From: Eledone cirrhosa
Taxonomy: Eukaryota
Length of the DNA: 64,000 nucleotides
Direction: 5' to 3'
NCBI GenBank assembly: GCA_964016885.1
Contig: OZ024757.1
Span: 17,112,001-17,176,000 of the forward strand
This document shows, one piece after another, positions 3,974 through 44,115 of this stretch. Each line of letters begins with the position of its first letter. Position 1 is the first letter of the stretch. The position numbers and the translations under genes are program-made. Below the pieces are notes generated by a model, which had not been told where the DNA came from, made no database searches, and saw nothing but the letters and a program-made list of their open reading frames with translations.

Positions 3974-4120
3974 ATAGAAATGGCTTCTACAGGACTAGAA
4001 CTGTTTCATTCGAATGAAACAGTTCTAGTCCTGTAGGAGCCGTTTCTATATTAAATATTTCCACTCTGTTTTGTATTGAGTACCTTACTTACTGTGGTTA
4101 CCCCCCATTGAACCCGGGTC
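3974..4120 (+). mobile_element. PLE-like family A relic, fold-back palindrome carrying only the 3' half of the hammerhead
   Basis: Palindrome centred on ttcattcgaatgaa; gaaacagttctagtcctgta matches the complete motif at 9583; ends at (CA)n(TA)n. Confidence 0.65.
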
Positions 4121-4217
4121 TCTCACACACACACACACACACACACACACACACATATATATATATATATATATATATATATATATATATATATATATAT
4201 ATATATATATATATATA

Positions 4218-4760
4218 TGAGTTAAGGGTGAAAGCAGCGATTCTTTGCTTAAATTTTAATCTGTACATATAATAAACATTTGCTATACGGGTTTATATAT
4301 ATATATATATATATATATATATATATATATATATATATATATGTATATATATATATATATATATATATATACATGAGTTAAGGGTGAAAGCAGCGATTCT
4401 TTGCTTAAATTTTAATCTGTACATATAATAAACATTTGCTATACGGGTTTATATATATATATATATATATATATATATATATATATATATATATATATAT
4501 ATATATGTATATATATACATATACATGAGTTAAGGGTGAAAGCAGCGATTCTTTGCTTAAATTTTAATCTGTACATATAATAAACATTTGCTATACGGGT
4601 TTATATATATATATATATATATATATATATATATATATATATATATATATATATATATATATATGTATATATATACATATACATGAGTTAAGGGTGAAAG
4701 CAGCGATTCTTTGCTTAAATTTTAATCTGTACATATAATAAACATTTGCTATACGGGTTT
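4218..4760 (+). repeat. Four tandem copies of an about 73-bp element fragment separated by (TA)n
   Basis: tgagttaagggtgaaagcagcgattc...ctatacgggttt occurs 4 times; homologous sequence lies at about 13540-13590 and 51237-51290 on the minus strand. Confidence 0.9.
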
Positions 4761-5600
4761 ATATATATATATATATATATATATATATATATATATATAT
4801 ATATATATAATATATATATGTGTGTGTGTGTGTGTGTGTGTGTGCGTGTGAGTGTAAATATTAGAGACTAACCACACTAACAACCAGCCAGTCAGTAAGA
4901 TTGTAACAGTAATTAGGTCAGAGAAAACAGTGATTGATGACATCATCACCCCCCCCCCCCCCCAACCTCCGCTACATTCTCTACATAGACTTGCCAGCCC
5001 TCTCTCTCTCTCTCTCTCTCTCTCTCTCTCTCTCTCTCTCTCCGTATACTTCCTTATTTTCCTTATCTATTTTAGTCAGTAAGTATATGACACTTGCCCA
5101 AGATGCTACGCAGCAAGACTAAACACGAAATCCCGTGGTTTAGAAACAAACATCTTAACCAGACGGTCGTAGCCTTTGGCAGTATCGCTAGAGGGTTGGA
5201 CGCCATGCTTTGTAGCACAGTTACGTCCCTTTACGGACTGAGTTCAAATCCTGCCGAGGTTAACTTTGCCTTTCATCCTTACGGGGTCGATAAAATAAAG
5301 TACCAGTAATACACTGAGATAATTGCTGGCCTTGTGCCAAAAAGTAGAAACAATTATTACCATAAGGGCGGTGAATTGGCAATACCGGTCGGTAGAGCGT
5401 CGGACACCATGCTTTGCGGCATAGTGGTATGGCCCTTAACGCTTATCATTCTTACGGGGTCGATAAAATAAACCACCAGTAACGTACTGGGGTCGATTTA
5501 ATCGACGTTCCCTTCCCCCTAAATTGCTAGCCTTGTGCCTATATAAGAAACCATTATTTGTTTTTGTTTCCTTTTATTTTACATGCAGAAACCCATATGT

Positions 5601-6108
5601 GTACCGTCCTGTACCGTCCTGTACCTTCCTCTACTGTGTTGTACCGTCCTGTAAGATGCTTTACCGTCCTCTACTGTGCTGTACCGTCCTGTACTGTGCT
5701 GTACCGTCCTCTACCGTGTTGTACCGTCCTGTACTGTGCTGTACCGTCCTGTATTATGCTGTATCGTCCTCTACTATGTTATACCGTCCTGTACTGTGCT
5801 GTACCGTCCTGTACTATGCTGTACCGTCCTCTACTATGTTGTACCGTCCTGTACTGTGCTGTACCGTCCTCTAGTATGTTGTATCGTCCTGTACTGTGCT
5901 GTACCGTCCTGTACTATGCTGTACCGTCCTGTACCCTCCTGTACCGTCCTGTACTGTGCTGTATCGTCCTCTACTATGCTGTATCGTCCTCTATTATGCT
6001 GTACCGTCCTCTACTATGCTGTACCGTCTTGTACTATGCTGTACCGTCCTCTACTATGCTGTACCGTCATGTACTGTGCTGTACTGTGCCCTCCTGTACC
6101 GTCCTCTG
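5601..6108. repeat. 10/20-bp periodic minisatellite (gtaccgtcct / ctactatgct)
   Basis: Decamer periodicity is directly visible; explains the YRP/CTV-rich ORFs. Confidence 0.95.
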
Positions 6109-6659
6109 CTGTTCTTAATGTACTTTTGTAAACCCTTTGTGGTTAATAAAGAAATCATTATTATTATTGGATTGGTAGTAACGATAGAGGGTGGGACGCC
6201 ATGCTTTGCAGCATAGAGTTACAGCCCTTTACAATCTGAGTTCAAATCCCGCCGAGGTTAACTTTGCCTTTCAACCTTACGGGGTCGATAAAACAAAGTA
6301 CTAGTAATGCACTGGGGTAATTGCTGGCCTCGTGCCAAAAGTAGAAACAATTATTATTATTGATTAACGGGGCGTCGCACAAAATGCTTTTCGGTATTTA
6401 GTTACTGCCATTTACGTTCCGAGTTCGAAACCTCGCCGAGGTCAACTCCGACTTTCATCTTTTTGGGGTTGTAAAAATAAAATACCAGTCAAATACTGAG
6501 GTCGATATAATCGACTTTAACTTCGCCTTAGAAATTGCTGGCTTTCTGCCTAAATTTGAAACCGTTATAAATTAGTTGTTTCTCTTTCAATAACGCAATT
6601 AATAAATTTTAAGGGATTAATTAAGTAATTAATTATTTCCTTATTAAGATAGTTACTTA

Positions 6660-41201: not shown

Positions 41202-41266
41202 TATTTCATTATATATATTTCAAGGATACCAAGTTACATTATGGTATGCCTTCATCAGACAAAATA
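41202..41266 (-). ncRNA. Type I hammerhead ribozyme motif (family B)
   Basis: Minus strand: tattttgt CTGATGA aggcatacca..tggtatcctt GAAA tatata TA atgaaata. Confidence 0.8.
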
Positions 41267-41599
41267 CAATATATAACAGTTTTATAAATAGACATTGACG
41301 TACCCCTTTAAAAATTGACCGTTGTTTTTGGAGGCCATCAGGATAGTGATTTCATCCTTGAAATATATATAATGAAATAAATATGGTTTTATAAATATAG
41401 TTTCCATTTATTAATATCGTATATCTACTCCAAATATATATATGCTTTATATCAGTTATAAAAATATTTGCTTGTTGTATCCCAACAATTTAAATAAAAC
41501 TTTTGCATATATATATATATATATATATATATATATATATATATATATATATATATATATATATATATAAGATCAAAAGATGGTTAAAGGAGTTCCATG

Positions 41600-41670
41600 T
41601 ATTTTATTATGCGCATTTCAAAAACAAACATCATCATGCAATAATATTTGTGTTTTCATCAGATAAAACA
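41600..41670 (-). ncRNA. Type I hammerhead ribozyme motif (family C)
   Basis: Same motif as 18523-18593 with a few substitutions. Confidence 0.8.
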
Positions 41671-43498
41671 GGAGAACATGATATGAAGGCTAAAAAACAC
41701 TTGTGGATAGTGCAGTTTTCTCCTTTAACCATCTTTTGATCTTATATATTATGTATACTCCAGTCCTACAAACTGTAGAGTGCTTATTATCCGATATCTG
41801 CATTGCTTTATTGTACTACAATAAAACTCACCTCCTACATTATATATATATATATATATATTTATATATATACTATTTATGTAAAACACATTTTAATTAT
41901 ATTATATGATGTTTGCAATAAAGAAAGAAACATTAATAATTAAAATATTGGAAGAATAGGAAAGTCGTTTATATTGACTCCAGTATTTAACTGGTACTAT
42001 ATGTTATCGATCTCGGAAGGAAATGTAGGCAAAGTTGACCTCGGCGGTATTTGAACTGAGAAACTAATGAGCTGCAACTAAATACCGCGGACCTGCGAAC
42101 TCTCCCCATGGTGTGGATGAGAGATGTCTTCTCCAGTGAAAAGGGATATAGCTTTCAGGTGAATTGGCAGTATCGGTAGAGGGTTGGATTATGCTTTCCA
42201 GCATAGTTACGTCCCTTTACGATCTGAGTTCAATTCCCGCCAAGGTTAACTTTGCCTTTCATCCTTACGGGGTCGATAAAATAAAGCACCAGTAATGTAC
42301 TGGGGTAATTGCTGGCCTTGTGCCAAAAATTAGAAACAATTGTGTAAAATCTTCCCCATTTTGCCTCATTTTTCCCCCGTTTTGCGGCACTTTTTTCATG
42401 GTACTCCGCGTTTGGGTTTTTAGAGTTTGGCAGGTCTGATACCGCAAAGCATTTTGTCTGACAATGGGAAGACGGAAGGGAGTGGCAGAATCTACAACCC
42501 CTAACTAGGGGATATATCCCAGCTGCGACCCGCAGACAAAATAGCGAAGGCGTTTCCCCGGAGAACAGCCAGCAACATCCGCTGCATCAACTACTACACC
42601 TCACCGGGTTCCTTCATCAGGCGGGATACACTCCTCCCAGTTTTCCTCATTATATTGTATACGTTATAGTTTTATACCTCATTATATTGTATGTATACAG
42701 TGTTAAACAATGCAAGAATAAGACAAGGTAGAGTAGTGAAATTATCCATCGCTTTACGATCGTTTCAGTGGGCAAAATTCACGATGTGCAGACCAATTGA
42801 TAGCAGTTATGCAGCTCCATACCATTAGCCATGAAAAGGCACATCCATTTTGCTTTTTTATCAGATAGAGAGATAGATGGCGATATAGACAGACAGACAG
42901 ATAGATAGATAGACAGATAGATAGCTATCTAGGTTTGTTTAAATAAATAGACGACGACAATGATGATGTGAAAGGTGATGATGATGATGATGATCGTGAT
43001 GTGATGACGACGATAGTGATGGTGATGATGGTGATGGTGATGATGAATCTTCCGTCGGTTTAAACGATGAGCATTCAGCCGTTCGATCAACTGAACGACT
43101 GACTCTTTAACTGAAACGAGTAAGTGGTTGAGTGTTCAACAGACACGTGTACATTTAACGCAATGGTTCTCAGGGAGATTCAGCAGGCTGAACCTTCGAA
43201 TTACAGGAACAATCCACCCGACGGGCTTCAGTACAGTTTCCGTCTACCCAATGTTATTCACAAGGCTTTGGATTGATCCGAATCTACAGTAAATACTCTA
43301 GCCCGAGATACCACGAAGTGGGATCGAACCCGTGACCTCATGCTTACGAAGCGAACTCCTAAACCCTTCCACTATATATATATATGATTCCAGTTCCTCA
43401 GTGAAATAACAACCCAATCAGGAACTGGGCATATCAGAGTATTGACAATATTATACACCTCAACAACATATGTACTTGTCTATACCACACTAATTCGG

Positions 43499-43553
43499 AC
43501 TGCCTGAAGAGGTCACAGCCAAAGATGGCTGTCACTGAAATATATATAGCAGT
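43499..43553 (+). ncRNA. Type I hammerhead ribozyme motif (family G)
   Basis: actgc CTGAAGA ggtcacagcca aaga tggctgtcact GAAA tatata TA gcagt, then aataaa. Confidence 0.88.
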
Positions 43554-44115
43554 AATAAACGAAGCTAAATTTTAATCATTTGACTTTTATTTAACTTTAT
43601 TTTACACTACTCCGGAGTAACCAAACCAACCTGCGCACTTTGTCGAGTGCTCCAGCCTGCATACTGAGGTGTTGGTATACAACCAACATAAACTGGTCTT
43701 ACCGGTTCCTATATATATATATATATATATATATATATATATATATATATATATAGGTGTGTGTCTGTGTATGCGTGTAAAAAGTAAATAGAAATAACAA
43801 AAGAAACGACACAGTACAATGAAGAAATATATTAGTTCAACGCTTGAAAGAAGAGTCTTAAAGAAGATAGAATGAGAAATAAAAGATGAAATAGAAATAT
43901 AGAGGGTAAGAATATATATATTGATTAATTTCCTTCGAATGAAACTTCTAGTCTTTTAGAAGCCATCTCTCTCTCTCTCTCTCTCTCTCTCTCTCTCTCT
44001 CTCTCTCTCTCTCTCTCTCTCCCTCTCTCTCTCTCTGTGTATCCCGGGTTCAATCGGGGTTAACCACAGTAAGGTACTCAATACATAGCGGAGTATAAAT
44101 ATTTAATATAGAAAT

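Follow-up and report, generated by a model that had tools for sequence, protein, structure and literature searches.

The start or the end of copying is fixed by protein-bound RNA structures in several systems, namely by the reverse transcriptase (RT) recognition elements of LINEs (long interspersed nuclear elements) and R2 elements and by the template-flanking elements of telomerase RNA. The RTs of Penelope-like elements (PLEs) are the closest relatives of telomerase, and the choice of an internal start on PLE RNA as well as the origin of the one-ended PLE tail are the questions addressed here. The Hydra clade of PLEs has been described to insert into (TA)n and to contain hammerhead ribozymes (PMC8557442). 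The protein of a lizard PLE was reported to start reverse transcription in vitro at two internal sites flanking the tail and to cut and extend both target strands, and RNA 3′ of the starts was needed (PMC11167929).

The locus under study is a stretch of 64,000 nt from Eledone cirrhosa (assembly GCA_964016885.1, contig OZ024757.1, positions 17,112,001 to 17,176,000), which is called the window throughout. A preceding sequence-only reading had noticed that several hammerhead-bearing elements in the window share the motif YACTC-N-GAGTRC about 30–65 nt before a (TA)n junction, and it had proposed a conserved RNA stem that the RT might use to recognise its template or to set the 3′ boundary. The analysis described here shows that the leaders of these elements, which can be assigned to the Hydra clade, contain twin bulged stems, and that insertions end 5–9 bases upstream of each. 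On the sense RNA, the stems are probably bound by the protein of the element itself and thereby place two starts of reverse transcription.

Results

Insertion ends and the two stems

In copies linked to an open reading frame (ORF), the order of elements is hammerhead, stem 1, stem 2, and ATG. In 1.19 Mb of genome DNA, the (TA)n junctions of every copy were mapped onto 13 references that include both stem positions. The microsatellite of the Y2 reference drew about 1,200 false junctions, and reference positions >260 were excluded from the register and coupling counts. Of these junctions, 203 of 210 were found 0–20 nt upstream of RCTC and 141 of 210 at 5–9 nt, compared with 84 and 23 of the 363 background TA sites in the same references. 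The values were 173 and 117 of 179 when the pattern-selected loci were left out, and 38 and 27 of 39 for blind-sampled DNA alone, which comprised 35 pieces of 10 kb (350 kb) from other contigs.

The two ends of an insertion belong to different stems. Stem 1 is preceded by the end of the inverted arm and stem 2 by the tail end, which follows a tail of 66–158 nt; stem 2 is absent from ordinary insertions. Altogether, 59 two-armed insertions with an inverted arm and a one-ended tail were found, and in 56 of them one end was located before stem 1 and the other before stem 2, where independence predicts half (p = 6e-15). In this count, the stem-2 end of the B, E, 13320, and 16373 families was defined as the tail end.

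These results reverse the assignment made before. The distance between stem 1 and the downstream junction, which stem 1 had been thought to set, ranges from 36 to 77 nt across 11 families; stem 1 is instead in register with the opposite insertion end, which precedes it by 5–9 nt. For the downstream junction, the register is with the second copy of the stem, and the offset of this junction to the next RCTC is near constant. The distances of the stem to the ATG (19–81 nt) and to the hammerhead (43–75 nt) are variable, whereas the distance to the junction is constant.

Once other families had revealed the layout with two stems, continuations past the family ends were searched, and the search required a family end followed by an ORF start, not the stem. 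GCTC 5–9 nt past the tail end, with GAGC behind a 2-nt bulge, was present in all five listed non-microsatellite continuations of family C (5/5) and in the single one of family B (1/1). The same GCTC/GAGC stem 2 was seen by eye in most of the 100 family D continuations listed out of 286.

Structure of the stem

For the structural analysis, 30 stem instances from 19 families were picked by eye. Left out were stem 2 of family A (no partner), stem 2 of family G and stem 1 of Y1 (mutated in the copies at hand), and D2. An alignment of 22 short motif pieces with MAFFT gave no structural alignment, and the pairs were counted by script. The motif consists of RCUC, an inner helix, a 2-nt bulge, and GAGY. 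The outer R:Y pair was G-C in 17 instances, A-U in 11, and mismatched in 2. The first of the two unpaired bases before GAGY was U in 27 of 30 instances, the first inner pair was kept in 26 of 30 (C-G 18, U-A 7), and the inner part of the stem varied from 8 to about 110 nt. The register with a 2-nt bulge was the only one that exceeded shuffled partners (69 of 90 pairs versus 45.3, p = 2e-4); bulges of 0, 1, 3, or 4 nt did not. On a quick protein tree, the A-U state of stem 1 is interspersed with the G-C state, and at least three double changes are needed to account for this. That tree was built only from the ORF loci of this analysis. The outer Y:R pair of YACTC/GAGTRC, which the motif had been assumed to conserve, is not part of the conserved helix, which is RCTC/GAGY with the 2-nt bulge and the inner helix; YACTC/GAGTRC is the A-U form of stem 1.

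Other identities of the motif were considered as well. It was rejected as a splice site because motif 1 is GAGC in many families and pairs upstream, and as a selenocysteine insertion sequence, a K-turn, or an iron-responsive element because it does not fit their consensus.

Two similar structures were observed elsewhere. In the endonuclease region of the family H ORF at loci L031 and L061 (codons PYSIDWSILDHSREY), the coding strand has a long hairpin that contains a 2-nt internal loop and is enclosed by TACTC..GAGTAC; it looks like a third copy of the stem and may be due to chance. A short repeat in the window contains two GCTC-taggta-GAGC copies 141 nt apart (37760-37775 and 37901-37916, plus strand) with no microsatellite nearby.

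The motif in the window

Both strands of the window were searched with the pattern YACTC-N(4-42)-GAGTRC, and 19 matches representing 18 distinct GAGTRC were obtained. A (TA)n, (CA)n, or (GA)n run was present 20–75 nt downstream of 14 of the 18, at actual distances of 30–63 nt; one match had an element tail cut at 19 nt, and three had no downstream microsatellite. The matches at 29056 and 29661, with neither element context nor microsatellite, were taken as chance. They are contained in what we take to be a decayed LINE-like coding stretch (28700-29400) and a repeat resembling a tRNA-derived short interspersed nuclear element (29640-30100). In shuffled windows with fixed microsatellites, 0.27 +/- 0.57 matches were so placed (30 shuffles, maximum 2). 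In the blind 350 kb, 20 of 31 matches were found 20–75 nt before a microsatellite (shuffles 0.53 +/- 0.67), copies of the same family not being independent events in these counts, and seven control patterns gave 0–3. The motif is thus real and positioned relative to microsatellites: the enrichment relative to the TA junction that had been suggested for verification was found in the window and in the blind DNA, and the eight sites named before were all recovered at their coordinates and strands. The features of the window are:

4062..4083, plus: stem 1 of family A (pattern match); tail joined to (CA)n/(TA)n at about 4123
8193..8214, minus: stem 1 of family A; tail junction 8151; hammerhead core 8282-8260; inverted-arm core 8289-8311
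8401..8875, minus: two-armed insertion of family B with its tail end at 8401; stem 1 8487-8465; inverted-arm core 8779-8819; arm ends at 8875, just before stem 1
9342..9648, minus: two-armed family A insertion, 98.6% identical to the leader of ORF-bearing L081; tail end 9342; stem 1 9405-9384; hammerhead core 9470-9448; inverted-arm core 9589-9611; arm end 9648
12695..12721, minus: stem 1 of a diverged family D copy
13276..13413, minus: two-armed copy of the 13320 family, whose end has 108 exact matches in the genome; the inner part of stem 1 (13372-13320) is long; no stem 2 seen
13527..13675, plus: two-armed family Q insertion (GCTC/GAGC lineage, absent from the sequence-only reading), one end per start site
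13994..14012, minus: stem 1 of family E, for which neither an ORF-linked nor a tandem copy was found; tail junction 13964
14323..14497, plus: two-armed family D insertion; stem 1 14426-14451; tail end 14497; inverted-arm end 14323
16317..16427, plus: two-armed insertion of a family B relative; stem 1 16355-16378
16794..16824, plus: D-like copy; its ACTC..GAGTAC is not matched by the YACTC pattern
18390..18790, minus: two-armed family C insertion; tail end 18390; stem 1 18479-18452; hammerhead core 18585-18539; inverted-arm core 18691-18737; arm end at about 18790
19220..19246, minus: stem 1 of a family D copy without downstream microsatellite
24669..24695, plus: stem 1 of family D; tail junction 24741
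41161..41507, plus: two-armed family B insertion; stem 1 region decayed
41567..41840, plus: two-armed family C insertion; stem 1 41756-41783
43504..43709, plus: 3′ end of family G, 79% identical to the leader of ORF-bearing L116; hammerhead core 43504-43540; stem 1 43608-43650; tail junction 43709
44035..44219, minus: two-armed family A insertion; stem 1 44095-44074; hammerhead core 44160-44138
47475..47502, plus: stem 1 of a family C copy; tail cut 19 nt later

No Rfam 15 model matched the window at the gathering score, and therefore the hammerheads were identified by pattern; the 150 shown of 233 matches by E-value were microRNA models, mostly on microsatellites. The view that all elements in question bear hammerheads was correct for families A, B, C, and G, for which full CTGANGA..GAAA cores are present in the window, but the copies of families D and E at the sites cited for them show the 3′ half only. 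Two ends that had been regarded as orphans are members of families. The one at 13320 belongs to a family with 108 exact matches, 99 of the 100 listed reaching (TA)n at the same base, and the one at 16373 aligns with family B (79% over 70 nt). Hammerhead-like cores beside (TA)n at 40997-41039 (plus) and 15014-14993 (minus) match no reference and have no stem; they are possibly arms ending at the stem-1 site or belong to other PLE clades.

Identity of the elements

Upstream of the motif, families A, B, C, and G have minimal type I hammerhead cores with a short palindromic stem III, and an inverted copy of this region is often present, which is the layout of a PLE insertion. Cores were seen in family H as well, and family D has a non-canonical 5′ core. 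These elements are inserted into (TA)n. Two degenerate patterns for motifs of the Hydra ORF had 388 and 1,382 matches in the 3.0-Gb genome (controls 0). A search of the window with nine ORFs by tblastn gave no match, and thus the window holds non-coding element ends only, mostly single two-armed stubs of ORF-bearing families. Elsewhere, family A leads straight into a Hydra-type ORF at loci L081, L083, L086, and L095, family C at L152, L153, and L155, family D at L169 and L175, and family G at L116; family B leads into a truncated ORF start at L164. Family D forms tandem units about 3.54 kb apart. For family E and the 13320 family no ORF-linked copy was found, and they may be non-autonomous.

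The motifs RW[KR] and DKT are present in 9 of 9 aligned ORFs and the CxCX5C linker in the 5 of 5 that reach it in frame; a CCHH motif in the endonuclease was not seen by eye in the aligned ORFs. The open ORFs of 710–896 amino acids carry YRDD; the intact protein of family D has 719 amino acids. The structural model of the family D protein had a predicted local distance difference test score of 89, and its best structural match was telomerase TERT (3du5). At the Pfam cut-off no family was obtained for the ORFs, and a weak GIY-YIG signal (E = 0.012, below the cut-off) was found in one of four proteins. Sequence searches of the PDB gave no real match.

The elements had been called otherwise unrelated, but families A, C, D, and G continue into ORFs that are 38–52% identical, and identities range from 30 to 73% among all proteins on the quick tree. 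When 21 leader references were compared by blastn, only four pairs of different families aligned (B/16373, H/K, D/D2, and Y1/Y2). The protein identities and the small number of aligning leaders indicate that the families are homologous but deeply diverged, and the sequences identify them as pseudo-long terminal repeats (pLTRs) of Hydra-clade PLEs. The reservation that the motif might be shared trivially among alignable close relatives was justified insofar as the families share ancestry, but most of the leaders no longer align by blastn, and therefore sharing of the motif is not trivial.

Several additional features of the families were observed. In the young family D with its 3.54-kb tandem arrays, a hammerhead-like fold about 270–290 nt upstream of the ATG (L175, minus) has a 5′ core that is not CTGANGA, and in the relative L109 the core is canonical and its stem II is long. 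Many ORF-linked copies in the family Q leaders (L088, L094, and L099) read CAGAAGA where the hammerhead core needs CTGAAGA, and CTGAAGA is intact in a short family Q copy in L002. A tandem repeat at 4155-4819 of the window (unit 154–158 nt, 4.3 copies) consists of a piece of the family Q pLTR ending at the stem-1 junction plus (TA)n. Upstream of the ORF at L070 (minus), the 5′ end of a family H copy is located exactly at the tail junction beside (TA)n, as would be seen for a unit-length copy from a tandem or circular template. The open ORF of family S at L123 (minus, 896 amino acids) has a long N/S-rich insert between the RT thumb and the linker, resembling the N-rich inserts described for rotifer PLEs (PMC3846280).

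Metagenomic relatives and published consensuses

An alignment of nine ORFs led to 77 marine metagenome loci. The ORF start is kept in 58 of them, which fall into 46 clusters; in 38 of these the upstream sequence is 150 nt or longer. At least one stem within 170 nt of the ORF start was present in 35 of the 38 clusters and at least two stems in 23 of 38, compared with 2.6 and 0.1 after shuffling and with 13/421 and 1/421 for ORF windows. Among 63 stem instances, 57 were GCTC/GAGC and 48 had ACT next. The antisense strand also scores (20/38) because the motif is partly palindromic. All six non-artefact junctions were located 6–13 nt upstream of a stem; four ‘junctions’ of L208 were microsatellite self-matches and were excluded.

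Three of six published Hydra consensuses (PMC8557442) also have the stem, as judged by eye: Hydra-1_Ajap has two before the ATG, and Hydra-2_Ajap and Hydra-2_Amil have one near the 3′ end. In Hydra-1_Obim, Hydra-1_Amil, and Hydra-1_Crog the motif was not clear by eye. Taken together, the sequences from distant hosts indicate that the stem is clade-wide.

Discussion

A proposed mechanism with two stem-placed starts

The order of the stems, the base swaps that are compatible with the fold, the register of both junctions, and the occurrence of one junction of each kind per two-armed insertion have been observed. Protein binding, folding of the sense strand, initiation, and the action of two proteins on one RNA are what we infer from them. 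In the proposed mechanism, the endonuclease would cut the (TA)n target on both strands. Each stem would bind protein and keep a 3′ end of (TA)n at the U/UA that precedes the stem by six to eight bases, and each of the target 3′ ends would anneal to the U/UA just 5′ of one stem and be extended toward the RNA 5′ end. Copying from stem 2 would include stem 1 and the ‘tail’, copying from stem 1 would include neither of them, and the two cDNAs would be joined head to head, so that two stem-placed starts would create the PLE tail. Stem 2 would be 3′ of both starts, which would explain why it is seen only in tandem or ORF-linked copies. Of the original proposal, the conserved stem tied to insertion ends remains, and recognition by the RT would be its best reading; the setting of the junction farther downstream does not.

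A wider formulation seems to us somewhat better than an even bet: a clade-wide, two-copy RNA docking signal would load two RT active sites onto one RNA, each of which would be primed, about six bases 5′ of its stem, by one strand of the cut (TA)n. Both the PLE tail and the inverted arm would result from this, and it would represent a telomerase-like choice of an internal template that could be moved to any RNA.

Several observations weigh against two stem-placed starts on the sense RNA. The strand bias is weak: G-U versus A-C pairs were 10 versus 3 in this genome (p = 0.09) and 19 versus 8 for inner pairs including the metagenome set (p = 0.05), and in ViennaRNA folds the outer helix was present for 22 of the 30 sense sequences and 19 of the 30 antisense ones. 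Family A, with four copies in the window, has ACTC 5–11 nt past the tail end but no GAGY partner within 300 nt, stem 2 in the single family G copy reads GAAC, and searches for continuations of family E and the 13320 family did not reveal a stem 2. The commonest stem-1 junction of family H is 15 nt upstream. The stem positions were chosen by eye, the 0–20 nt window was chosen after the data had been seen, and TA microhomology blurs the junctions by 1–3 nt. The lizard PLE that serves as a precedent belongs to another clade.

Alternative explanations

The two ends could also be generated by a single start and a stop. The RT would start before stem 2 only, the cDNA would fold back or switch template, and the returning strand would be stopped or cut about 6 nt before stem 1, which would act as a boundary element on cDNA or RNA. 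This likewise gives one end of each kind per insertion, a point that also counts against two starts; the weak strand bias would fit, and self-priming has been proposed for inverted PLE arms (PMC3846280). We nevertheless regard it as unlikely, because the two junctions lie on the same side of the same motif and at the same offset, an agreement that is not required of a start and a stop, and because the lizard PLE starts reverse transcription in vitro at both tail boundaries (PMC11167929).

It is quite improbable that the GIY-YIG endonuclease recognises the motif as a DNA site and that the junctions arise where it cuts the DNA of the element, about 6 nt upstream. GAGYRCTC is a near-palindrome, TC or TT follows GAGYRC in most instances, and the tail is needed for cleavage by the D. 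virilis Penelope endonuclease, as cited in PMC11167929. But the variation of the inner part between 8 and about 110 nt and the compensatory pairs kept around a bulge fixed at 2 nt point to a folded single strand and not to a duplex site, and the target is (TA)n without the motif. The location in the pLTR or 5′ untranslated region, 19–81 nt before the ATG, would also be compatible with promoter or translation signals of the leader, e.g. an antisense promoter whose start sites become element ends, and bidirectional promoter motifs together with an antisense template have been suggested for rotifer PLEs (PMC3846280). Covariation of base pairs and long variable inserts would not be expected for a promoter box, however, and the motif keeps a fixed distance from the junction but not from the ATG, so that we consider such signals very unlikely. 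The probability that chance or trivial sharing among close relatives accounts for the motif is negligible. Ancestry is common and four leader pairs (B/16373, H/K, D/D2, and Y1/Y2) still align, but the other pairs of the 21 references do not, the proteins are only 30–73% identical, and the motif occurs in distant marine hosts; the enrichment in blind DNA, the junction register, the persistence in metagenomes, and the coupling in two-armed insertions refute this explanation.

Implications and comparison with known systems

The fixed offset of a short conserved stem to both ends allows a precise and cheap test of two stem-placed starts. It also provides a rule for locating the true ends of Hydra-clade elements, and the stem could be a portable signal for RNA-templated insertion at (TA)n.

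The elements resemble the described Hydra clade of endonuclease-containing PLEs in RW[KR], DKT, the CxCX5C linker, and a GIY-YIG-type domain at the C-terminus, and also in the type I hammerhead in the pLTR, the (TA)n target, the inverted arm, and the one-ended tail (PMC8557442). They differ in the length of the tail, which is 66–158 nt here and 30–40 nt in the published elements (PMC8557442). The words ‘stem-loop’ and ‘hairpin’ occur 0 times in the main text of that paper, and full-text literature searches, which had subscription journals, Repbase, and Dfam outside their scope, returned no description of the stem. Similar to metazoan non-LTR retrozymes, short non-coding hammerhead repeats derived from PLE pLTRs (10.64898/2026.07.22.740005; PMC4209133), the window copies are non-coding; unlike these, they are mostly single two-armed stubs of ORF-bearing families and not head-to-tail arrays. 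The two internal RT starts flanking the tail, the extension of both target strands, and the requirement for RNA 3′ of the starts are features of the Poseidon element PAc of Anolis (PMC11167929), and the arrangement proposed here is like it in these respects.

Taken together, the sequence evidence argues for a new cis-acting RNA element in a known clade. As an RT-recognition structure it would be of a known kind, and its arrangement as twins 3′ of the starts would be new. The stems of LINEs and R2 are inside the copied part and occur once, whereas the stem described here would be 3′ of the start and occurs twice, with stem 2 remaining uncopied. The boundary element of telomerase RNA is 5′ of the template and stops copying, whereas the PLE stem would be 3′ of the start.

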